Part shown: positions 9,788 through 64,000 of the stretch, one piece after another | Numbering within the stretch: the stretch's first letter is position 1 | Layout of the letters: every line of letters starts with the position of its first letter | NCBI GenBank assembly: GCA_050261235.1 | Contig: JBLNDB010000092.1 | Coordinates: forward strand, 18,833 to 82,832 | Source: Chloroflexota bacterium | GTDB taxonomy: Bacteria; Bacillota; Sulfobacillia; JBFLWA01; JBLNDB01 | Direction: 5' to 3' | DNA length: 64,000 bases | Made by a program: the position numbers and the translations under genes | The notes under the pieces: generated by a model | The model's database searches: none | What the model was told of the DNA's origin: nothing | What the model saw: only the letters and a program-made list of their open reading frames with translations

Positions 9788-11139
9788 TGACAGTCACCAT
9801 CGTCGGCGCCGGACTGGCCGGCGCGGAGGCGGCGTGGCAGGTCGCCCGGCGGGGTGTGCCGGTCAGGCTCATCGAGATGCGCCCTCTCAAGACGACGCCG
9901 GCGCACCACACCGATCTGTTCGCTGAACTCGTCTGCAGCAATTCACTTCGCGCCGCTTCCCTCGACAACGCCGCCGGGTTGCTCAAGGAAGAACTCCGCC
10001 GGCTCGACTCGTTGATCATGCGGGTCGCAGACCGCACCCGGGTGCCGGCCGGGGGTGCTCAGGCGGTCGAGCGTGGCGCGTTCGCACGCGGTGTCACAGC
10101 CGAGCTCCGGAACCATCACCTGGTCAGCGTCGAGATCCGCGAAGTGGAGTCGCTGCCCACGTCCGGTCCGAGCATCATCGCCACCGGACCGCTGACATCG
10201 CCGTCTCTGGCGGCGGCAATCACCGACTTCACCGGTGAGCAGCATCTGAACTTCTTCGATGCCGCGGCTCCCATCGTCAGCGCGGACAGCATCGATCGGG
10301 GAGTTGTTTTCGCCGCCAGCCGTTATGGCAAGGGCGAGGCCGTCTATCTCAACTGCCCGATGACCAAAGACGAGTATGAGACCTTCCTCGCCGCGCTCAT
10401 CACCGCCGAGCGGGCCCTGCCGCACGACTTCGAGGCAGGGCCGCGCGAGCGCTACTTCGAAGGGTGCATGCCGATCGAAGCGATGGCCCGTCGCGGCCCC
10501 GACACGCTTCGCTTCGGCCCGCTGCGCCCGGTCGGGCTGACCGACCCGCGAACGGGGAAGCGACCGTATGCTGTGGTCCAACTGCGGCCCGAGAATCGCG
10601 AGCAGACGCTGTACAACCTCGTCGGTTTCCAGACCAGCCTCAAGTGGGGCGAACAGCGACGCGTCTTCCGCCTCATCCCCGGACTCGCCGGCGCCGAGTT
10701 CGAGCGGTACGGGGTCATGCACCGGAACACATACATCAACTCGCCGCGCATCCTGCTTCCGACCATGCAGACGCGCGCCAGGCCCGACCTGTTGTTCGCC
10801 GGGCAGCTGACCGGGGTTGAAGGGTACGTCGAGTCGACGGCTTCCGGTCTGGTCGCCGGCATCAATGCGGCGCGCCTGGAGCGTGGTGAGGGCCCGCTCA
10901 CGCCGCCGCGCGAGTCGGCCATCGGCGCGCTGTGCCACTACATCTGCGAGGCCGAGCCCGACTCCTTCCAGCCGATGAACGTCGCCTTCGGGCTGTTCCC
11001 GCCACTGCCGGAGCGCATCCGCAACAGGAACGAGAAAAAGCGGGCGCTGGCCGAGCGAGCGCTGGCGGCACTCGACGCCTACAGGCGCGAGGCGGAGCCT
11101 GCAGCCGCGGGGCCCAGGGAATTGTCTACTGACGTATGA
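9787..11139 (+). CDS. trmFO: Methylenetetrahydrofolate--tRNA-(uracil54-C5)-methyltransferase TrmFO (Gid)
   Basis: N-terminal FAD-binding [10 protein letters not shown] motif. Length and B. subtilis synteny (topA-gid-codV). Confidence 0.9.
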
Positions 11140-11157
11140 CAATTTTGAATTCACGCC

Positions 11158-11186
11158 TTGTCACGGCAACTCTGGCCATGTAGAAT
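11158..11186 (+). promoter_or_regulatory. Putative sigma-A promoter TTGTCA-17-TAGAAT upstream of xerC-hslVU-codY
   Basis: Near-consensus hexamers with a 17-nt spacer. Confidence 0.4.
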
Positions 11187-11190
11187 GAGT

Positions 11191-11222
11191 GGGGAGGGGC
11201 TCACCTCCCCGATTTCGTTTTT
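11191..11222 (+). terminator. Hairpin GGGGAGG-GGCTCA-CCTCCCC plus U-rich tail; either trmFO terminator or a leader attenuator for xerC
   Basis: 7-bp GC stem followed by GATTTCGTTTTT. It lies between the candidate promoter and the xerC start. Confidence 0.4.
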
Positions 11223-43563: not shown

Positions 43564-44829
43564 ATGCTTCAGACGACGCAGCTGCCCAGTGGCCCCCTGG
43601 TGGTCAGCGAGGCTGTGCCGGGTTTCGGTTCGGTCTCGATTGGCGCCTGGGTGGGTGTCGGCTCGGCCCACGAGCCCGCTGCCCGCTCAGGCCTGTCGCA
43701 CTTCATCGAACATCTCGTGTTCAAGGGGACGCGCCGGCGGACTGCCCGCGAGCTGGCGGAGGCCATCGAGGATGTCGGCGGGCAGATCAACGCCTACACC
43801 GCCAAGGACTACTCGTGCTTCTACGCCAAAGTGCGCCAGCCAGACATCGGCATCGCCGTCGACGTGCTTGGCGACATGCTGACCGAATCCACGTTCACCC
43901 CCGATGACGTCGACCGCGAGCGCGGCGTCGTCCTCGACGAAATCAGGCTGGCCGAAGACGATCCCGGCGATGTCGTGCACGACTTGTTCTGTTCCACCTG
44001 TTGGCCGACCTCACCGCTGGGGCGACCGGTGAGCGGCACACGACTGACTGTCAGCGCCATCTCCCAGTCTGAAGTCGTGAATTTCTTCCGATCGCACTAC
44101 GGACTCGGCAATCTCGTGGTCGTGGCTGCCGGGGCGGTCGACCACGAGCAACTGATCGAGTTGGTTGAACGGCACTTTCTCGGCGCGACCGCGCCGGCAC
44201 CGGCCGTATTGCTGGACATCCCGCAGCCGTGCTTCTCACCTGACTTTGCCTACCGCGCGCGGGCCACGGAGCAGGTTCACCTTTGCCTCGGCAGTGAGGC
44301 ACTGGCCATCGACGATCCGGATGTCTACACGCTGGAAGTCGCCAATGTGCTGATCGGCGGCGGCGCTAGCTCGCGCCTGTTCCAGGAGGTGCGCGAGGAA
44401 CGCGGTCTGGCTTATGACATCTACTCGTACCCTTCGTTCCACCGGCGCGCCGGCCTGTTCACTGTCTATGCCGCGGCATCGCCGGATCTGGCGGTGGAGG
44501 TCGCCGAGATCGCCATCGCCGAACTCCGCTCGCTGATTGCGACACCACCCACCGAACGTGAGGTGGCGCGAGCGCGCGCCCAACTGCTGGCATCGCTCAC
44601 CTTCGGCCTCGAGAGCAGCGGCTCGCGCGCGGCCAGAATCGGCAAGAGCCAGTTCTACCTTGGCCGGGTCGAGACAATCGAGGAGGCGGGGGACCTGATT
44701 GCGCGGGTCACGCCCGCCGATATCCAGCGCTTGGCGGGCCGCCTCTTCTCCGGCCGGTTTGCCGTTGCCGCCGTCGGAGCCGGGGAGGCGGAGCAGCCGC
44801 TCGCCGACCTGTTCCGTCGCATCGGCTGA
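43564..44829 (+). CDS. M16 family zinc peptidase (MlpA/YmxG-like, non-secreted)
   Basis: Inverted zinc motif HFIEHLVFKG plus downstream Glu. Start trimmed from 43357 to MLQTTQLPSGP with GGGGAGG upstream. Confidence 0.85.
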   Translation: MLQTTQLPSGPLVVSEAVPGFGSVSIGAWVGVGSAHEPAARSGLSHFIEHLVFKGTRRRTARELAEAIEDVGGQINAYTAKDYSCFYAKVRQPDIGIAVDVLGDMLTESTFTPDDVDRERGVVLDEIRLAEDDPGDVVHDLFCSTCWPTSPLGRPVSGTRLTVSAISQSEVVNFFRSHYGLGNLVVVAAGAVDHEQLIELVERHFLGATAPAPAVLLDIPQPCFSPDFAYRARATEQVHLCLGSEALAIDDPDVYTLEVANVLIGGGASSRLFQEVREERGLAYDIYSYPSFHRRAGLFTVYAAASPDLAVEVAEIAIAELRSLIATPPTEREVARARAQLLASLTFGLESSGSRAARIGKSQFYLGRVETIEEAGDLIARVTPADIQRLAGRLFSGRFAVAAVGAGEAEQPLADLFRRIG

Positions 44830-44853
44830 CCTGAGCGTAAACCGAAATAGCCG

Positions 44854-44891
44854 CGACAGCCACGGGAAATCCCGTGGCTGTCGCTTTTCTT
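44854..44891 (+). terminator. Strong intrinsic terminator after the M16 peptidase gene
   Basis: GCGACAGCCACGGG-AAAT-CCCGTGGCTGTCGC followed by TTTTCTT. Confidence 0.7.
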
Positions 44892-44985
44892 GTGCCCGTG
44901 TCACACTCCGAGAAGGCGACATAGTATGTAGTAGCTTATGGAACCTCAGGGAACCCGATTGACACTCAGCCGGGGGGAGTCGAGG

Positions 44986-45360
44986 ATGGCTCGCGCAAGG
45001 GTCATCGGTAAGAAGGTGCGCCGGATCAAGAAGCCAGCCGCAAAGGCACAGGAGGCCAAACCAGTGGCATTCGACAGGGCGAAAGCGTTCCAGGACGCCA
45101 TCAGCGAACTCCGCGACAACGCCGATCAGTACATGCGCGAACCGGACTTGGGGTCTGCGATCCGCCGCCTTTTGAACAAAGTCGGCGTACCGATGTCGGA
45201 GCGCCAGGCGGACTCGCTCTGTAACGCAGTGGGCGTAAGCGGCGATCTCAAGCCAGGCGATACTGACGCGCTACGGTCGGCCTTCGGCCGCGCCGCACGC
45301 AATCTGCCGCAAGGCAGCCCCAGCCTGACGGATCTCATGAAGAAGGTTCGCCCGAAGTAG
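44986..45360 (+). CDS. Hypothetical basic protein (124 aa)
   Basis: ATG 6-7 nt after GGGGGGAG. Lys/Arg-rich N-terminus. No homolog recognised. First gene of the insertion. Confidence 0.4.
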   Translation: MARARVIGKKVRRIKKPAAKAQEAKPVAFDRAKAFQDAISELRDNADQYMREPDLGSAIRRLLNKVGVPMSERQADSLCNAVGVSGDLKPGDTDALRSAFGRAARNLPQGSPSLTDLMKKVRPK

Positions 45361-45381
45361 GAAAAGCGCGCATGGCAGGGG

Positions 45382-45576
45382 GTGAGCGGGCTGTTCAAAA
45401 CGCGGATGGATCAGGAGATCTTCCGGCTGGCAACGCTGATCATCCTCTTCTTCTTCTTCGTGGTCGGCGTGGACGCGATCAGCGGCTCGCTCAGCTGGGC
45501 GCCGGCCCGCCGCGTGCCCGCTGCGCCGCCCTGGCCCGCCTCACCATACCCACCTCTGGCACCCGGAAGGAGGTAG
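45382..45576 (+). CDS. Tiny transmembrane peptide, array copy 1 (divergent; the ATG at 45406 is an alternative start)
   Basis: Hydrophobic core LATLIILFFFFVVGV shared with the downstream copies. Confidence 0.4.
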   Translation: MSGLFKTRMDQEIFRLATLIILFFFFVVGVDAISGSLSWAPARRVPAAPPWPASPYPPLAPGRR

Positions 45577-45580
45577 GTGG

Positions 45581-45829
45581 ATGCCCGTCGCCACAGCAGC
45601 ACGGGATCAGGCCAGGGACCACGAACGTGGGCCGGATCTTGGGCCGTACGCCCCGGGTGATGACTTCGACACGGAGCCGGACGACAGTGAGGACGAAGCA
45701 ATTCCTCGCGATCCGGCGGAAGCAGGCTGGCTCAATCCCGGCATACGACCGATCTTCGTGGCTGTGATCCTCATCATCCTGATGTTCTTCTTCACCCTCA
45801 CAACCGTGGTCACTCGCCAACTGCTTTAA
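45581..45829 (+). CDS. Tiny transmembrane peptide, array copy 2 (acidic N-terminal extension)
   Basis: GGAAGGAGGT RBS. C-terminal IRPIFVAVILIILMFFFTL core. Confidence 0.5.
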   Translation: MPVATAARDQARDHERGPDLGPYAPGDDFDTEPDDSEDEAIPRDPAEAGWLNPGIRPIFVAVILIILMFFFTLTTVVTRQLL

Positions 45830-45857
45830 CACGACCCTGACAGGAGGTGAATCAGGA

Positions 45858-46007
45858 GTGGCCGATCTTCAGAGCTCACAGGTGGGCTGGGGCGGCGGAT
45901 GGTTCTTCGGTCCCGGCCGCTGGATCTTCATCGCGGTGATTCTCATCATCTTGCTGTTCTTCTTCGCGATCGTCTCCGTGCCGGGCACGGGCGGACCGAT
46001 CTGGTAG
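45858..46007 (+). CDS. Tiny transmembrane peptide, array copy 3 (49 aa)
   Basis: AGGAGGTGA RBS. VADLQSSQVGWGGGWFFGPGRWIFIAVILIILLFFFAIVSVPGTGGPIW. Not in the ORF track. Confidence 0.6.
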   Translation: MADLQSSQVGWGGGWFFGPGRWIFIAVILIILLFFFAIVSVPGTGGPIW

Positions 46008-46046
46008 AACAGCGATCGATGGTCAGATATTCGGGAGGTGACAAGA

Positions 46047-46169
46047 ATGGCGGACACCCAGACCTCAGGCGGATGGTTCTTCGGTCCCGGCCGCTGGATC
46101 TTCATCGCGGTAATCCTCATCATCCTGCTCTTCTTCTTCGCAATCGTCGCCGTCCGGCCCATCTGGTAA
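46047..46169 (+). CDS. Tiny transmembrane peptide, array copy 4 (40 aa)
   Basis: GGGAGGTGA RBS. MADTQTSGGWFFGPGRWIFIAVILIILLFFFAIVAVRPIW. About 90% nt identity to copy 5. Confidence 0.65.
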   Translation: MADTQTSGGWFFGPGRWIFIAVILIILLFFFAIVAVRPIW

Positions 46170-46204
46170 GCTGACCTGTGCACGCGACCGAGGAGGTGAC
46201 TAGA

Positions 46205-46342
46205 ATGGCAGACACCCAGACCTCAGGCGGATTCTTCTTCGGGCCCGCCCGCTGGATCTTCATCGCGGTGATCCTCATCATCCTGCTCTTCTTCTTCGCG
46301 ATCGTCTCGGTCCCGGGAACCGGCGTCGGCCCGGTCTGGTAA
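46205..46342 (+). CDS. Tiny transmembrane peptide, array copy 5 (45 aa)
   Basis: GAGGAGGTGA RBS. MADTQTSGGFFFGPARWIFIAVILIILLFFFAIVSVPGTGVGPVW. Confidence 0.65.
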   Translation: MADTQTSGGFFFGPARWIFIAVILIILLFFFAIVSVPGTGVGPVW

Positions 46343-46550
46343 GGCAGCATGACGGTCCAGCCCTGGCAGGAGGTGGCATGCGACCCTGGCATAACCTCAC
46401 GGCGGGGCTGGGGCGGCTTCTGGAGTCGAACCCGAATGAGCACGACAACGGCTGATCGACATCAGCCACGCCACCGCAGAGCCGCAGCGACTCCAGGCGC
46501 GGGCCCGGTCGTCGACCGAGCTCAGTGCATGGTCACGGGAGGTGAACCTG

Positions 46551-46670
46551 ATGGCCGATCTTCAGGGTAGCGGCCTGATTTGGGGTCGCTGGATCTGGAT
46601 CGCTGTGATCCTCATCATCCTCCTCTTCTTCTTCGCCATCGTCGCCGTGAGACCGTGCTGGTGGTGGTGA
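46551..46670 (+). CDS. Tiny transmembrane peptide, array copy 6 (39 aa)
   Basis: GGGAGGTGA RBS. MADLQGSGLIWGRWIWIAVILIILLFFFAIVAVRPCWWW. Confidence 0.6.
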   Translation: MADLQGSGLIWGRWIWIAVILIILLFFFAIVAVRPCWWW

Positions 46671-46725
46671 GTACCGCTGCGCGTGCACGCTGCCGAAGGC
46701 ACGCAAGGGCCTGAGGTCGCGAACG

Positions 46726-46763
46726 GGAAGAAGGGCCGGACCGGCTGCCGGTCTGGCCCTTCT
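46726..46763. terminator. Bidirectional intrinsic terminator between the peptide array (+) and the convergent minus-strand gene
   Basis: Near-perfect palindrome AGAAGGGCCGGACCGGC-TGC-CGGTCTGGCCCTTCT with pyrimidine/U-rich flanks on both strands. Confidence 0.6.
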
Positions 46764-46778
46764 CCGATTATCCGGGGG

Positions 46779-47456
46779 CTATTGGGCCGAACTGCCATCA
46801 GCTGTCGCCGGCTGCCGCGGCTGTATGAACGAGGCCAACAGCTCGAGGAACGCTGGCGATGTGATGTACGCCAGCGCGCCGAGAATGTCTGGTGCCTTCA
46901 TGGCGACCGCGTCGGCCTGTTGTGGCGCCTGACCATCGGTCGATGCCACCGACAAGCGCGCTTCGCGCGGCGCGGCCACGCCGCTCAAGGCCCCGAACAG
47001 GCCCTGTGCGATCTGGCTGAGCTGGCGCCGCCCTTCCGGACTCAGCAGGCCGAGCACATTCTTGATGACATCCAGCGCAGTGATGATGCTTTCCGTCGCC
47101 TTGGCCATCTCCTGGGTGGCGCCCTGGAGCTGAACGATACCCACTTGCGCGCGCCCCAGAAGGTCGTCAAGCGAGATGCGCCGCTGCTGGATCCGGACCC
47201 CGGGCGCGAGGCTCTGTGGCACGAAACCGGCTGTTGACACCTCGACCTGTCCGCCGCCCGCCGAGGCTGCCAGCGCCGGCAGAGCAGCTGGTTGCTGGGT
47301 GGCGGCCTCCTCGCCACCGACCAGCGACAGCAGGAAATCACGTTTCTTCTGTAACGAGACAATCTCACTCTCAAGGCGCGCACGCTCTGTCAAGCAAGAC
47401 TGGAGGCGGTAGTTGACACGCTGCAGCCTGTTCACTACCTCGTCCTTATCCGCCAT
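46779..47456 (-). CDS. Hypothetical coiled-coil protein
   Basis: GAGGAGG 10 nt upstream of the ATG (minus strand). N-terminal heptad-like MADKDEVVNRLQRVNYRLQSCLTERARLESEIVSLQKKRDFL. Stop abuts the bidirectional terminator. Confidence 0.55.
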   Translation of the reverse strand: MADKDEVVNRLQRVNYRLQSCLTERARLESEIVSLQKKRDFLLSLVGGEEAATQQPAALPALAASAGGGQVEVSTAGFVPQSLAPGVRIQQRRISLDDLLGRAQVGIVQLQGATQEMAKATESIITALDVIKNVLGLLSPEGRRQLSQIAQGLFGALSGVAAPREARLSVASTDGQAPQQADAVAMKAPDILGALAYITSPAFLELLASFIQPRQPATADGSSAQ

Positions 47457-47555
47457 GTCCGGGCAACCTCCTCGGCAACCAACAAGGTCAACACATTATA
47501 CGGGCAGCCGGCCGGGATGTGAGATGCCTGGTCGAGCCGCAGGGGAGAGAGGACT

Positions 47556-48704
47556 GTGTATCCTTATTATCTCTGGTATCAGCAGAGGCAGTGGTACCAG
47601 CAGCATGACTCACGGAGAATCCTGGTGCTGAACAGCGGCATCGACCCGCTCGACTACTTCCGGCGCACGCTCGGGCGGCAGGGCGCGGTGCTGGTACGCC
47701 ATCTGCCGCTGATCAACGCGGTCACCTGCCACCTGCCGGCGCGGGCGTCGGTGATGACTCTTCGCGGTCAGCCGGAGGTGTCCCGCGTCGACTACGACTT
47801 CCTGCTGCGCATCGAGACAGTCGCGCGGCCTCAACTCGCCAGCATCTCAGCCGGGCAAGAGGTGCCATGGGGGATCGAGCGGATCCGCGCACCGCAGGTC
47901 TGGCAGGCCACTGACGGGTCCGGTGTGCGGATCGGCGTCATCGATACCGGCATCGATCTCACACATCCCGATCTCCAGCAGAACATTGCCGGCGGTACCA
48001 ACATCCTTGATCCCGGCCAGCCGCCGGTCGATGACAATGGTCACGGAACTCACGTCGCCGGTACGATCGCTGCACTGAACAACGGCATCGGCGTGGTCGG
48101 CGGCGCACCGGGCGCACGGATCTTCGCCATCAAGGCGTTCGATCAGAACGGCACGGCACGGCTGTCCGACGTCATCGCCGCACTCGAATGGTGTCTCACC
48201 AACAACATCAGCGTCATCAACCTCAGCTTCGGCAGCGACACGGGAAACGAGAGCTTCCGCGACGCTGTCCGGGCCGCCGCGCGGTCGACCGTCCTGGTTG
48301 CCGCGGCAGGAAACAACGGCCGGGCCGACTCCGTTGACGTTCCCGCCCGCTACCCTGATGTCGTGGCCGTATCCGCATCGACCCGCGCCGACCAGCTGGC
48401 GGCTTTCTCCAGCCGCGGGCCGCAGGTGGCCGTCGCCGCCCCCGGTCAGGATATCCTGTCGACCTGGACGGACGGAGGCTACAGTACGCTCAGCGGCACG
48501 TCGATGGCTACCCCGCACGTCACCGCGCTGTATGCACTGCTGATGCGCTACCGCCCGGGACTGTCGCGGGCGCAGATGCTCGAGATCATCCGTCGCACGG
48601 CCGATCCGCTGATCGGCGTGGCCCAGGATGGCGGTTCCGGCGTCATCAATGCTGCGAACGTGATCACTGCCTTCCGCCCTGGCTGGGTGTTGCCCGCCCG
48701 TTAG
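47556..48704 (+). CDS. Subtilisin-like serine protease (peptidase S8) lacking a signal peptide; intracellular-type
   Basis: Catalytic triad motifs VIDTGID, HGTHVAGTIAA, GTSMATPHV. The N-terminus MYPYYLWYQQRQWYQQHDSRR has no hydrophobic signal. Propeptide-like region precedes the catalytic domain. Confidence 0.85.
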   Translation: MYPYYLWYQQRQWYQQHDSRRILVLNSGIDPLDYFRRTLGRQGAVLVRHLPLINAVTCHLPARASVMTLRGQPEVSRVDYDFLLRIETVARPQLASISAGQEVPWGIERIRAPQVWQATDGSGVRIGVIDTGIDLTHPDLQQNIAGGTNILDPGQPPVDDNGHGTHVAGTIAALNNGIGVVGGAPGARIFAIKAFDQNGTARLSDVIAALEWCLTNNISVINLSFGSDTGNESFRDAVRAAARSTVLVAAAGNNGRADSVDVPARYPDVVAVSASTRADQLAAFSSRGPQVAVAAPGQDILSTWTDGGYSTLSGTSMATPHVTALYALLMRYRPGLSRAQMLEIIRRTADPLIGVAQDGGSGVINAANVITAFRPGWVLPAR

Positions 48705-48729
48705 GCTCATATAATCCACTGGTGATGCT

Positions 48730-49005
48730 ATGCGCATGAGCGAGCTGAGGAACAAGGAACTGATCGACCTGAGCAGCGGCAACCGTCTCGGCCTGATTGG
48801 TGAAGCTGATCTGGTCATCGACCAGGAGAGCGGCAAGATCATCTCGCTGGTCATGCCTGAGCGCGGCGGCGGGTTTAGCCTGTTCGGCCGCGCGCGCGAG
48901 ACCACCGTCCCTTGGTACGCGATCAAGAAAATCGGCGCGGACCTGGTCATCGTCGACCTTCCCGGCGGCGAACTGCCGCGCTCTGAGCGCGAACGCTGGC
49001 AGTAG
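48730..49005 (+). CDS. ymxH: YlmC/YmxH family sporulation protein (PRC-barrel)
   Basis: MRMSELRNKELIDLSSGNRLGLIGEADLVIDQESGKIISLVMPE...LFGRARETTVPWYAIKKIG matches the YmxH family. Conserved position before dpaA. Confidence 0.85.
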   Translation: MRMSELRNKELIDLSSGNRLGLIGEADLVIDQESGKIISLVMPERGGGFSLFGRARETTVPWYAIKKIGADLVIVDLPGGELPRSERERWQ

Positions 49006-50609: not shown

Positions 50610-50618
50610 TCGCAACTC

Positions 50619-50646
50619 ACCTGCGCGTGCAGCCGGTCATATAGTG
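50619..50646 (+). promoter_or_regulatory. Putative sigma-K-type promoter (AC-N17-CATAtagTg) upstream of dpaAB
   Basis: AC at 50619-20, 17-nt spacer, CATANNNT(g) at 50638-46. B. subtilis spoVF is sigma-K dependent. Confidence 0.3.
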
Positions 50647-50693
50647 TAGCAATCGTCAGCCTCACCGGCTGCCCAGCAGGGGGTCAGCGTCTC

Positions 50694-57315: not shown

Positions 57316-58271
57316 TGTACAGACAACCAGCGCCAGTCGGCGCCCAGCGACGCAAGACCCCCGTCAGCCCGGCCGTCCCGGCAGACCCGGTTAGGCCGGC
57401 GTTGCCTGACCGGGGCAGCCCGGAACCAGGAGGACCGCCGACGACGCCCGCGTCGCCGACTGCGCCCAGTGTCGAGACGCCCAGCGGCCAGCCGAACGTG
57501 GATCCGGGTTCACCGGAGCCTGAACCGCAGCCGGAACCGAGCCGGCCTGGAGCGCGTCGCAATGGCAGCGAGACCGCCGAGAACATCGCCTCGCTGGGCG
57601 TCGCGACGGTGCCGGCCGGCAAGTCCAATATCCATTGCATGACCATCATCGGCCAGGTCGAGGGCCATCTCGCTCTGCCGCCGCAGAACAAGACGACCAA
57701 GTACGAGCACATCATCCCTCAGTTGGTGGCGATCGAGAACAGCCCGGAGATCGAGGGCGTTCTGCTGGTGCTGAACACCGTCGGCGGGGATGTCGAGGCC
57801 GGGCTGGCGATCTCGGAGATGGTCGCGAGCCTGTCGAAGCCGACGGTTTCGATCGTCCTCGGCGGCGGACACTCCATCGGTGTGCCGATCGCCGTCGCGG
57901 CGCGGAAGTCATTCATCGCGCCGACGGCGACGATGACGATCCACCCGATCAGGCTGACCGGATTGGTCGTCGGCGTCCCCCAGACATATGAGTACCTTGA
58001 CAAGATGCAGGATCGGGTGGTCAAGTTCGTCATCCAGCACTCTCACATCAGCGAGCAACGCTACCGGGAGCTGATGTTCCGCACCGGCGAATTGGCCCGC
58101 GACATCGGCACGGTGATCGTCGGCCCGGATGCCGTGAAGGATGGCTTGATCGACGCTGTCGGTGGCCTGAAAGAGGCGATGAGCGCGCTCCGTGAGATGA
58201 TCGCGGCCGAACGGCAGCGTGCCGGGGGCGCTGGCGGCGAGTCGACGGCGAAGGCGGGGAGGAACAGGTGA
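57316..58271 (+). CDS. tepA: ClpP-like translocation-enhancing protein TepA with Pro-rich N-terminal extension
   Basis: AAGGAGG RBS. ClpP-fold core [13 protein letters not shown]...[16 protein letters not shown]. About 90-aa low-complexity Pro-rich N-terminus. Confidence 0.85.
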
Positions 58272-58483
58272 CGCTGCACACGATCATGCCGCTGGAACTC
58301 GTCTTTGCGCAGCCCGCAGACGCCGAGCCGCCCGTGGAAGTGGAAGCGGACGGGCGCCGCCTGCTGGTCCAGCACACCGGCCAGGCGTGGACCGTCGTCA
58401 GACTGCTCAGCAGCGATCCTGCCGACTATCTGGATCCGCGTTTTCAGCCTGGCACGCCGCTCGCGACACCAATCCGCAACTGA
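58268..58483 (+). CDS. ylzJ: YlzJ-like protein
   Basis: 71 aa, [16 protein letters not shown]-terminus. GTG after GGGGAGGAACAG. Conserved position after tepA. Confidence 0.65.
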
Positions 58484-58575
58484 GAGGGCGCCTGCGGGCG
58501 TCCTCTTGGCTCCTGGCATGCAGTCGACATGAGCGGTCTATATTCTTCTCGGATTGGTCTCCGGGAGGGAAGACG

Positions 58576-59280
58576 GTGGAACTGCTGGCCGGGACGGCAC
58601 TGCTGGCACTCGGCGGGCTCATCGCGGCACAACGGTCGCGGAGTCTGGCCGCTTCCGAGCGCGCCCTGCGCTGTCTGGCGCTGCTGGGGGCCATCCTTGT
58701 GCTCTCACCCCGCCACGCTGCCGGCGTCCTGGGGGCCGGCTGGCTTCTCAGTCTGACCGCGCGACAGCGAGGCAACGGTTGGGACCTGTTCGCGGCTGGC
58801 TGTGGCCTGCTTGGCCGGGGCCTGCTCGCCGCGCACGCCCGGTCAACCGCCGACGCAGCCTGTTGTCTGCTGTTTCTCGCCGGCTGGCTCGCGTTCACTC
58901 TGCGGACGACACACCGCACCGCCAGTCCGGCGCGGTTGCGATGGGAAATCGTGCGCGCCCGACAGCGGCTCACTGAGCGTCACTGCAGCCCGGCCTGGCG
59001 GTTGCGGGCCAGCGATGCTCTGGCACGGGCGATTGGCCTGACCCGAGTGGTGCTGCCGCTATCGGACGGGGCGGGCCTCAGCCTGGCCTGCAGCGGGGTC
59101 GCGGCGCTGGCCGATGGCGATCCGGTCGCGGCGCGCGACAGCTTCGCCCTGGCCCGTCGGGCCGTGTTTGCGGCTGCAGGGACAGCCCCGCGGCGCAGAG
59201 AAGAACTGTCCTTGTGGCTAGAATTGATCGACTGGTGCGACTACGCGGTGACGCTCATCGGCGAGGAGGCCCGACCATGA
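58576..59280 (+). CDS. Hypothetical Ala/Arg/Leu-rich membrane protein
   Basis: GTG 8 nt after GGGAGGGA and high GC3. The ORF-track N-terminus from 58219 overlaps tepA/ylzJ. Could be a GC artefact. Confidence 0.35.
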   Translation: MELLAGTALLALGGLIAAQRSRSLAASERALRCLALLGAILVLSPRHAAGVLGAGWLLSLTARQRGNGWDLFAAGCGLLGRGLLAAHARSTADAACCLLFLAGWLAFTLRTTHRTASPARLRWEIVRARQRLTERHCSPAWRLRASDALARAIGLTRVVLPLSDGAGLSLACSGVAALADGDPVAARDSFALARRAVFAAAGTAPRRREELSLWLELIDWCDYAVTLIGEEARP

Positions 59281-62465: not shown

Positions 62466-62582
62466 CCCGCGAGGCGCTGGGCGCCCACGCGTAGCCACAG
62501 GCGATGGACGTCCCTGTCGGGTTATGTCGAGCGGGTGCCACTGTTCGCGCGAACGAATTGGCGCTACGAATGGCAGGAAGGG

Positions 62583-62598
62583 ATTGGCCACGTGGCCA
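62583..62598. promoter_or_regulatory. Perfect 16-bp palindrome TTGGCCACGTGGCCAA (candidate operator)
   Basis: Exact inverted repeat about 50 nt upstream of the next gene's start. Confidence 0.35.
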
Positions 62599-62649
62599 AT
62601 TATGCACCGTTCGCGCCAAATCACAGCCATTGCACAGGAGCGTGAAGGC

Positions 62650-64000
62650 TTGGTGTTGCAGCGTGGGATCTGCCGTATCATTGTCGTCGCTCTCATCGTC
62701 GGGCTTTCAGGCGTACCAGTCGCTCGCGCCGAAGACGTCCCGGTCGCCGCCACAGCCTCCGCCGCCCGGACAGGATACAGTGACCAATGGTTCGGACGGA
62801 ACCTGGTTCAACTCTGGTCTTACCCAGCCGGCAGCGCCGTCTACTCGCCGCCGGTCACCGATGGCCGAGCCATCTACGCCGGGTCGGACGGCGGCCGCTT
62901 CTTCGCGCTCGACCCGGCGACCGGCGCTGAACTCTGGTCATATGAGGTCGGCAGCGCGATCAAGGATCCGGCCTGCCTGGCCGGCGACCGAGTGTACTTC
63001 ACTACACTGCGCGGTGACGTCAACGCACTGGCGACGGCCGACGGGACGCCGATCTGGAAGGCCGAGCTGCGGGAGCGCATCGATGCCGGCGTCGCGGCGA
63101 CCGGCGACCGGATCGTCGTGCCCTGCAGCGACGGCATCGTGCGCGGGCTGTCGGCGCTCGATGGCACCACGGTGTGGCAGTACACGATCGGTGTCGGCAC
63201 CCGGCTGCTGTCCACGCCCGCCATCACCGACGGCGTGGTGCTCATCGAGGCCGATGACAGCCTGACAGCGCTTGAACCGCTGACCGGCAGCCTCCTCTGG
63301 CACGTGCCGCTCAGCGGTGAATTCCGGCACTGGCCTGTCATCGCGGGAGACCGCGTCATCACCGCCGGTAGCGGCGACTCGCAGGGCGGTCTGAAAGCGG
63401 TTCGGATTGCCACCGGCGAGGAGCTTGGCGGGTACAAGTATCCGGGGGACAACCACTGGGCCGCGCCGGCTATCGATCCGAGCGACGGCTCGGTGTACGC
63501 CGGACTGGAGGGGGGCGTGTTCCGGTTCTCATCCCAGCTCGGCAGCCCCGTCGCCAGGTGGGACGGCAAACCTGAGGCGAAGTCCGGCAGTAAGCGCTAC
63601 GTCATGTGGCAACCGCTCATTCTTCGCGACCTGATCGTCGTTCCCGGCCATCTTGAGGTCAGCGCTGCCGACGCGCTGTTCTTCTTCAGTCGCGACGGCT
63701 CGCTGAGCTTCCTCGGCGTCCAGCCGCTGCCGGAGAAACTTGCCGCTCCGCCGCTCGTATATGAGAGCGTATTGTACTACGGATCAGTCAGCGGCAATCT
63801 GGTCGCACTGGCGCCGGTGCGGGTGAGGCTGAACGGCTCACTGGTCGACTTCGGACAGAAGCAGCCCCTGAGCCAGCCGAGCGGTCGCGTCATCGTCCCG
63901 GCCCGGGCTGTCGTTGAGGGTGCCGGCGGGACGATCGACTGGGATCCGGTCGCCCGGGTGGCAACCGCGCGGTTCAACGGCCATGTCGTGGCGATGCCGA
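62650..64000 (+). CDS. Secreted PQQ-like beta-propeller repeat protein with C-terminal copper-amine-oxidase N-terminal-like (stalk) domain; 3' end runs past the window
   Basis: Open frame to the window edge, so not in the ORF track. TTG/GTG 9-12 nt after AGGAG. Signal peptide RIIVVALIVGLSGVPVARA. PQQ-type repeats (AGSDGGRFFALDPATGAELWSYEVG, GLSALDGTTVWQY, LEPLTGSLLWH). C-terminal LNGSLVDFGQ...ARFNGHVVAMP. Confidence 0.65.
   Translation, partial: MVLQRGICRIIVVALIVGLSGVPVARAEDVPVAATASAARTGYSDQWFGRNLVQLWSYPAGSAVYSPPVTDGRAIYAGSDGGRFFALDPATGAELWSYEVGSAIKDPACLAGDRVYFTTLRGDVNALATADGTPIWKAELRERIDAGVAATGDRIVVPCSDGIVRGLSALDGTTVWQYTIGVGTRLLSTPAITDGVVLIEADDSLTALEPLTGSLLWHVPLSGEFRHWPVIAGDRVITAGSGDSQGGLKAVRIATGEELGGYKYPGDNHWAAPAIDPSDGSVYAGLEGGVFRFSSQLGSPVARWDGKPEAKSGSKRYVMWQPLILRDLIVVPGHLEVSAADALFFFSRDGSLSFLGVQPLPEKLAAPPLVYESVLYYGSVSGNLVALAPVRVRLNGSLVDFGQKQPLSQPSGRVIVPARAVVEGAGGTIDWDPVARVATARFNGHVVAMP

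Follow-up and report, generated by a model that had tools for sequence, protein, structure and literature searches.

A clade-specific block of tiny membrane-peptide genes, two orphan genes and a signal-less pro-subtilisin gene between mlpA and ymxH as a candidate sporulation module

Little is understood of the tiny membrane proteins of sporulation, such as the YjcZ-type proteins, SpoVM and CmpA, and annotation usually misses them. YjcZ proteins are membrane peptides of 30 to 50 amino acids (aa) with a single helix and Gly/aromatic-rich flanks, which occur in spore-formers, often in multiple copies, and yjcZ, the gene of one such tiny transmembrane (TM) sporulation protein, belongs to the sigmaK regulon (PMC517825). 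Proteases with the S8A triad and no Sec signal are also described in spore-formers, namely the clostridial Csp germination proteases (CspB/CspBA) and the Bacillus intracellular subtilisin proteases (ISP, PDB 2x8j), and S8 genes lie near several short paralogous open reading frames (ORFs) in the loci of the lanthipeptide and cyanobactin leader peptidases LanP and PatA/PatG, which have tandem precursors. Here, we describe a block that contains both tiny peptide genes and a signal-less S8 gene, in a window of 64,000 nucleotides of contig JBLNDB010000092.1 (GenBank assembly GCA_050261235.1). The block occupies 44.8–48.7 kb of the window, between the gene of an M16 peptidase (mlpA-like, ending at position 44829) and ymxH, and encodes a 124-aa protein (p124), 6 small hydrophobic peptides (pep1 to pep6), a 225-aa coiled-coil protein (CC225), and an S8 protease. 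All the features that a preliminary description had noticed in this interval were found again at about the same positions. With moderate confidence, we propose that the block is a clade-specific sporulation module that includes a peptide operon expressed in the mother cell.

The closest relatives of the M16 peptidase (58–75% identity) were taken from Logan assemblies, and a further locus, L096 (L numbers denote the loci compared), is a JGI contig from a scan with the promoter pattern described below, which returned this one true locus and 2 chance matches in low-GC contigs. The same components were found in the same order and at the same site in at least 5 further lineages (L009/L005, L091, L092, L093, and L096), and every contig of these close relatives that reaches past the M16 gene carries the block at this site. 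L009 and L005 contain the 2 ends of the block, the L091 and L092 contigs contain its 5' part, and L093 has a compact version with 3 peptides. In L096, the whole module is contained within 4.5 kb (promoter, p130, pep1, a 141-aa long form, 4 short peptides, hairpin, coiled-coil gene, S8, and ymxH). Two outgroups, L098 and L099, with M16 proteins that are 45–46% identical, have the order pnpA-nfo-M16-dut-YflT-dapB-dpaA; the block is absent and the interval holds only dut, or dut and 2 unrelated small genes. Because these outgroups share the wider synteny without the block, the block is a clade-specific insertion, as the preliminary description had claimed, and its genes co-occur in a fixed order in the relatives instead of being scattered.

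The 6 peptide genes share a 79-nt repeat that codes for the TM segment (repeat family D1), and all of them are on the plus strand. The gene of pep1 (45382–45576, starting at GTG 45382 or at ATG 45406) encodes a small membrane protein of the type MDxEIF/YRL..LIILFFFF with a basic and Pro-rich C-tail. It is followed by pep2 (45581–45829), an 82-aa long form in which the family TM helix lies C-terminal to an acidic, Pro-rich N-extension, and by 4 short single-TM peptides: pep3 (45858–46007; 49 aa, MADLQSS..GRWIFIAVILIILLFFFAIV..PIW), pep4 (46047–46169; 40 aa), pep5 (46205–46342; 45 aa), and pep6 (46551–46670; 39 aa, ending in CWWW). With their starts corrected to MAD..., the 4 short genes have GGAGGTG Shine-Dalgarno (SD) sites 6–7 nt upstream (7 nt for pep4). 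The in-frame GC content at third codon positions of the peptide genes is 0.80–0.89 (0.85 for pep4 and 0.89 for pep5), similar to that of the neighbouring genes. In the TM core, 4 of the 6 paralogue pairs have more synonymous than non-synonymous changes and the remaining 2 have as many of one kind as of the other; the peptides are also conserved at the protein level across lineages. The 6 tiny single-TM peptide genes noted earlier are thus real, and a decayed copy adds to them. This stretch (about 46349–46540, plus strand, between pep5 and pep6) contains repeats D5 (86%) and D11 (93%), which match the 5' end of pep3, and still has an SD site and the 5' sequence that encodes GWGG..FW but has lost the TM segment; it is probably the pseudogene remnant of a seventh peptide gene. 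In the NCBI annotation pep3 is a hypothetical protein (P0002), and a near-identical copy of pep5 (P0001) was found in another sample.

Three forms can be told apart across the clade. In the short forms (35–55 aa), the helix (IFIAVILIILLFFFAIV) hardly varies; it follows a Gly/aromatic N-tail that contains a single Arg and leads into a short C-tail whose last residue is usually Trp (PIW, CWWW, GGGWWW). In the long forms (82–141 aa; 101–141 aa in relatives), the family helix comes after the acidic, Pro-rich N-extension. The pep1 type reads MDxDIYRL..LIILFLFF across lineages, again with a basic C-tail, and has orthologues in L009, L091, L092, L093, and L096 (E-values of 1e-16 to 1e-27 with a hidden Markov model, HMM). 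By the positive-inside rule, the short peptides are predicted to be tail-anchored with the N-terminus inside; since the pep1 type carries a basic C-tail, it is probably oriented the opposite way. A peptide profile searched against 5.8e9 proteins found only 6 clusters, mostly from the same organism. The contig ends of L001–L003, L005, L009, L091, and L092 fall inside the peptide array. Assemblies break there because of the near-identical TM-coding repeats, and such short-read breaks imply that arrays of this kind are systematically under-assembled and under-annotated.

Size, a single I/L/F-rich helix, Gly/aromatic flanks, and multi-copy occurrence are all common to these peptides and the YjcZ proteins, the sigmaK-type promoter motif of the peptide operon would suit the place of yjcZ in the sigmaK regulon (PMC517825), and the peptides could therefore be very divergent YjcZ members (TIGR01732/PF09680), that is, a known family in high-GC guise. 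However, when the comparison with TIGR01732 that the preliminary description had in mind was run, none of 15 peptides from 5 lineages (6 from the window and 9 from relatives) matched TIGR01732 or PF09680 even at E ≤ 10, whereas a genuine member in L078 scored 45.1 bits with the same tool (TIGR01732 cutoff, 21.35 bits). A profile-sequence comparison with hhalign gave a probability of 13% over 13 columns. The window peptides also differ from YjcZ in their helix motif (IFIAVILIILLFFF), their Trp-ended tails, the N-extended long forms, the pep1 subtype, and the fixed five-part block in which they are encoded. Membership in this family is thus quite improbable, and the window peptides resemble YjcZ proteins in kind and not by family membership.

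Upstream of p124 is a sigmaK-type promoter, TCACA-N13-ACATAGTATG followed by a conserved TAGTAGC (44901–44934, plus strand; TCACA at 44901–44905), which is conserved in all 5 aligned lineages. Every lineage of the clade has TCACA-N13-ACATAGTATGTAGTAGC before the 124-aa gene, with the CAC core conserved throughout, and the motif GTnnCAC-N15-CATAGTATGTAGTAGC, kept by all lineages, is the only part of the M16–p124 intergenic DNA that has not diverged. The -10 element is invariably CATAGTATG in 4 lineages, CGTAATATG in one of the L009 copies, and CATAGGATA in L093, and the promoter motif is present in L096 as well. Sporulation operon spoVF of B. subtilis is sigmaK-dependent. In our window, the pattern KCACM-N13-16-CATANNNT occurs only before p124 and before dpaA (spoVFA), against a mean of 0.28 in shuffled sequences, and the exact CATANNNTGTAG is likewise restricted to these 2 places. 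The dpaA gene lies 5 kb downstream of the operon, and its promoter (50617–50649) reads KCACM-N15-TCATATAnTr. The dpaA promoters of the window, L005 (approximately 4398), L098 (10317–10401), and L099 (7474–7587) have TCACC/GCACC-N15-TCATATAnTr, which fits the sigmaK consensus exactly. This promoter, conserved in the clade and in 2 outgroups, can serve as an anchor for defining the sigmaK regulon in uncultured high-GC lineages. The B. subtilis sigmaK consensus consists of KCACM and GCATANNNTA (PMC3416734), 14–16 nt apart (PMC517825), and spoVFB of Epulopiscium has been tabulated with a sigmaK-type promoter (PMC3416734). The p124 promoter matches the KCACM -35 and the CATANNNT(A/D) -10 when compared with the B. 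subtilis consensus. Because the pattern is restricted to p124 and dpaA and both of its elements match, late transcription of the peptide operon in the mother cell, dependent on sigmaK, seems most likely. With a conserved sigmaK-type promoter like that of dpaA, a sporulation membrane-peptide system is the best fit among the possibilities that had been raised for this locus.

The operon ends before a strong hairpin (46729–46763; 17-nt arms, 94% complementary), which folds with a dG of -40.1 and -35.4 on its 2 strands (z about -4), is kept in L005, and recurs at unit ends in L009. We consider it a probable bidirectional terminator between the peptide operon and the coiled-coil gene. Such a terminator had been proposed before; the strong conserved hairpin is indeed there, but it has no canonical U-tract, which is why the terminator scan did not call it. 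In the L009 array, the promoter motif is present 3 times, each paired with a GGGCCGGACCG...CGGTCTGGCCC hairpin, forming promoter-genes-terminator cassettes (L009:2700–4890). These 3 cassettes imply that whole transcription units, and not genes alone, were duplicated.

Small hydrophobic peptides encoded in tandem copies are also known from the Ibs, Ldr, and Zor loci, and the small size, strong hydrophobicity, and tandem arrangement of the window peptides would suit an array of membrane-damaging peptides of the type I toxin kind, possibly with antisense RNA antitoxins. However, a single promoter precedes the whole series of genes, which point the same way with little space between them and have strong SD sites at the short ones, and a soluble protein of 124 aa is another product of this operon. 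A search against Rfam gave no element at E ≤ 1, a scan of the window for sigma-70-like promoters detected none in antisense orientation to the peptide genes, and the block sits at a fixed chromosomal site inside a sporulation cluster. These features of the operon make a type I toxin array highly improbable.

The S8 gene (47556–48704, plus strand) encodes a 382-aa signal-less pro-subtilisin of family S8A (PF00082, 198 bits) with an aromatic N-terminal motif, an I9-type propeptide, and intact catalytic residues. Its DTG, HGTH, GTSMA, and GNNG motifs align to subtilisin E, so that the D/H/S triad and the oxyanion Asn are present. Residues 39–366 match pro-subtilisin E (3whi, E 7e-63), and residues 39–100 align to the propeptide (3whi residues 30 to approximately 95, and also the Tk-subtilisin precursor). 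By these alignments, the protease is catalytically intact and predicted to be an active pro-subtilisin. Its N-terminus, MYPYYLWYQQRQWYQQHDSRR, was judged by inspection to lack a hydrophobic h-region, and the same holds in L005, L093, and L096, which bears out the earlier claim of a protease without signal peptide. The unusual aromatic N-terminus, claimed as well, is present: MYP[YF]xxW[YF]xxRQ is conserved in 3 lineages and absent in L093. Orthologues of the protease were found in L005 (77% identical), L093, and L096, and a scan of JGI metagenomes with a profile of the S8 N-terminus gave no match.

The Csp proteases have a full N-terminal I9-type prodomain, which the window S8 retains likewise. 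The latter, with 216 bits for pro-subtilisin E against 178 bits for ISP, is closer to the classical secreted subtilisins; unlike these, it has no Sec signal peptide, and unlike Csp and ISP, it has the clade-specific MYP[YF]xxW[YF]xxRQ N-terminus. Its best NCBIfam match was the mycosin model TIGR03921 (182.5 bits, below the cutoff of 278.75), and no type VII secretion system genes are near the S8 gene. The scores with the CspBA (NF040809; 41 bits, cutoff 1250) and CspC (NF040808; 34 bits, cutoff 675) models were also below cutoff. Signal-less pro-subtilisin-like proteins of Paenibacillus are approximately 40% identical over nearly the full length and have a propeptide-like N-domain. Their genes lie beside rpoE, between pyrG and argS, with no tiny-peptide array or coiled-coil partner nearby, and this different conserved context (rpoE, pyrG-argS) led us to reject them as orthologues. 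The Paenibacillus gene is conserved in L012, L014, L015, and L021 (approximately 9900–11200), and we know of no described function for it.

Tandem short paralogous ORFs next to an S8 protease gene recall the LanP and PatA/PatG loci. A locus for ribosomally synthesized and post-translationally modified peptides (RiPPs), or for another kind of peptide processing in which the subtilase removes the leader from tandem precursors, had accordingly been raised in the preliminary description, and the C-terminal part shared by long and short forms would fit N-terminal trimming. In contrast to those loci, no modification enzyme, transporter, or immunity gene is present in the block or its flanks: neither radical SAM, LanB/C/M, or YcaO proteins nor an ABC transporter was found among the neighbours (M16, p124, CC225, S8, YmxH, YflT-like, DapB, and DpaAB), and the absence of modification enzymes had already been noticed. 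The peptides have no leader-plus-core layout either, since it is the TM helix that is conserved, after a variable and short stretch in the place of a leader. The protease lacks an export signal and scored only 66 bits with the PatA/PatG cyanobactin protease model (cutoff 421), and the promoter is of a sporulation type. This leaves a RiPP-like locus very improbable.

We also scanned GTDB genomes with the S8 protein; this produced matches on the universal S8 motifs, and 80 loci (about 1.4 Mb in all) were listed. Among them, a tandem tiny-TM array was found only at the best match, L010 (Clostridia bacterium MAG111, JBLNDA010000100.1), whose S8 protein is 45% identical over the full length and the closest among the matches listed. 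The block itself was found at none of the listed S8 loci, this analogue excepted. The L010 array (MTQEIEFWWIIILLFVLLIP...) lies 170–700 nt upstream of the S8 gene, and the locus also contains a CATATGATAGTAGC motif. The L010 module (L010:2293–6081) comprises a divergent coiled-coil-type 245-aa gene, a 123–139-aa helical protein, a 58-aa TM protein, 3 tandem TM peptides of 35–37 aa, and a signal-less S8; the 245-aa protein has its coiled coil at the N-terminus. This module adjoins sucD and not mlpA, and is thus in a different genomic neighbourhood. The recurrence of the arrangement suggests a functional linkage of the protease to the peptides.

The proteins encoded on either side of the short peptides are both orphans. 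The gene of p124 (44986–45360, plus strand) encodes a disordered N-terminus and a helical-bundle domain (residues 30–121); the protein had been described as basic, and the basic part is the N-terminal 29 residues. CC225 is encoded convergently, as previously claimed, at 46779–47456 on the minus strand, and consists of an N-terminal coiled coil (residues 4–46), a low-complexity linker, and conserved C-terminal helices (..YITSPAF..). In its AlphaFold2 model, the long helix 4–46 has a predicted local distance difference test score (pLDDT) of about 80, the rest is poor, and the overall pLDDT is 51. Neither p124, CC225, nor the peptides matched any Pfam, NCBIfam, PADLOC, or PHROGs family, and the PADLOC and PHROGs searches of the block gave generic subtilase matches only. 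CC225 homologues are restricted to the clade, with only 2 other clusters among 5.8e9 proteins, and a phmmer search with p124 against 1.84e9 representatives recovered clade members and 3 repetitive proteins only. These (P0132, P0134, and P0135) were rejected as homologues because they are long repetitive proteins with scores inflated by the repeats; the first helices of p124 (residues 18–62, window 44986–45170) resemble a motif repeated 7 times in the 1437-aa P0132 (E 2.5e-20, repeat-inflated). When all the fetched loci were searched with HMMs of p124, the coiled-coil protein, pep1, and the short peptides, no match lay outside the clade. The 3 components (p124, the peptides, and the coiled-coil protein) are thus orphans confined to the clade in these searches.

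The coiled-coil gene has a promoter of its own on the minus strand (47495–47523), conserved in L005 and L093, which can be read as cTCACA-N17/18-TATAAT or as KCACM-N14/15-cCGTATAATG and is therefore ambiguous between a sigmaA and a sigmaK/E-like type; at the equivalent place, L010 has TCATATAATG. A conserved GGTCAnnCCATTATACGGG element between the coiled-coil and S8 genes was considered as an S8 promoter and rejected, since it fits the minus-strand promoter of the coiled-coil gene better. At its upstream boundary, the block is separated from the M16 gene by an intrinsic terminator (44853–44884, plus strand) with a 14-bp stem that includes 11 GC pairs, followed by TTTTCTT (dG -31.9, z -7.5); the strong terminator reported earlier at 44854–44891 is thus present and placed slightly differently. 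At the downstream boundary (48708–49005, plus strand), a -10-like element precedes ymxH, which encodes a YlmC/YmxH sporulation protein (TIGR02888, 94 bits, cutoff 44). This element (48708–48715) is CATATAAT in the window and conserved as CATAGAAT in L005. The sigmaE consensus is KCATANANTN, and the resemblance of CATATAAT to it indicates that ymxH probably has its own promoter and is not expressed by read-through from S8.

The window has a GC content of 65% and a Bacillus-type gene order (polC, nusA, infB, rpsO, pnpA, mlpA, ymxH, spoVF, asd, dapG, dapA, rnj, tepA, ftsK). It encodes DpaA and DpaB equivalogs above cutoff, and the nearest named relatives of the M16 peptidase are from Ammonifex and Desulfotomaculum. 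The NCBI label of this metagenome-assembled genome (MAG), "Chloroflexota bacterium" (locus tags ACM3XN_09965 and ACM3XN_09975), looks doubtful in view of DpaA/DpaB, YmxH, the synteny, and the Ammonifex/Desulfotomaculum matches. To judge from these genes, most likely, the host is a Bacillota-like bacterium that forms endospores. Two sizeable ORFs, 58219–59280 (353 aa) and 62504–63265 (253 aa), which flank uppP and ftsK, had no Pfam or NCBIfam match.

Several observations weigh against a sporulation module whose parts work together. NCBI labels the MAG as Chloroflexota, and sporulation of the host is a prediction from its genes. The p124 promoter has a spacer of 13 nt, which is 1 nt under the 14–16 nt range of B. 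subtilis sigmaK promoters (15 nt at dpaA), that of the coiled-coil gene could equally well be a sigmaA promoter (TATAAT), and no sporulation-type promoter could be assigned to the S8 gene. If the short peptides have their N-termini inside, their Trp-rich C-tails are out of reach of a cytoplasmic protease. No significant similarity to the window families, in sequence or profile, was found for the peptides, the helical protein, or the coiled-coil protein of L010 (hhalign probability <10%), so that the parallel is architectural only, being suggestive and not proof. Finally, the order shared within the clade may reflect descent alone.

The last points would agree with unrelated lineage-specific genes that lie together, have separate functions, and owe their order to common descent. 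Members of the clade are fairly close (58–75% identity of M16) and have the block at one and the same position, the genes are divided into 3 separate transcription units, each behind its own promoter, with an intervening hairpin, and no component of L010 besides S8 is detectably homologous. Nevertheless, the order has persisted despite strong divergence of the intergenic DNA, the copy number, and the content of the array, and the sole other tandem tiny-TM array among the 80 S8 loci listed is directly upstream of the closest listed S8 relative, in another context. We therefore regard a chance neighbourhood of unrelated genes as rather unlikely. The preliminary description had grouped these genes as a possible unit; the block conserved in order and site in at least 5 lineages and the analogue at L010 speak for this, whereas the link between protease and peptides is unproven.

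We envisage that an uncultured lineage of high GC content, whose members probably form endospores, acquired the block at the junction of mlpA (M16) and ymxH. The main operon would run from its promoter through p124, pep1, and the tiny peptides to the hairpin, would be transcribed in the mother cell by a sigmaK-type RNA polymerase, like dpaA, and would yield very small membrane proteins that are single-pass and paralogous to one another. We infer that these peptides insert into the spore envelope or into a membrane that faces the mother cell, such as the outer membrane of the forespore. Duplication of single genes, or of units that consist of promoter, gene, and terminator, would let their copy number drift. 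Two further proteins would be made in the same compartment and may act on or with the peptides: the coiled-coil protein, as a scaffold, and the signal-less pro-subtilisin, as a maturation or turnover protease. It would go further, and in our opinion is unlikely, that p124, the pep1-type proteins, the tandem Trp-capped tail-anchored peptides, the coiled-coil protein, and the signal-less pro-subtilisin together form a previously undescribed spore-envelope system, of which at least one other lineage, of the Clostridia (L010), has an analogous and sequence-unrelated version. The mother cell would then load a membrane or coat layer with many tiny hydrophobic peptides, which the coiled-coil protein would organise and the protease would mature, e.g., by cutting back the acidic N-extension of each long form.

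The value of this case is limited for now, as the clade is uncultured and the family very narrow. It nonetheless adds an expanded family of tiny peptides, with no detectable relation to known families, that is encoded in a fixed block with 2 orphans and a pro-subtilisin. If L010 does have a version of a spore-envelope system, the module would be a recurrent and fast-evolving one and not the oddity of a single clade. If the parts work together, they would represent a new way to build or mature a layer of the spore envelope, and a clean example of how duplication of promoter-gene-terminator cassettes expands micro-protein families.

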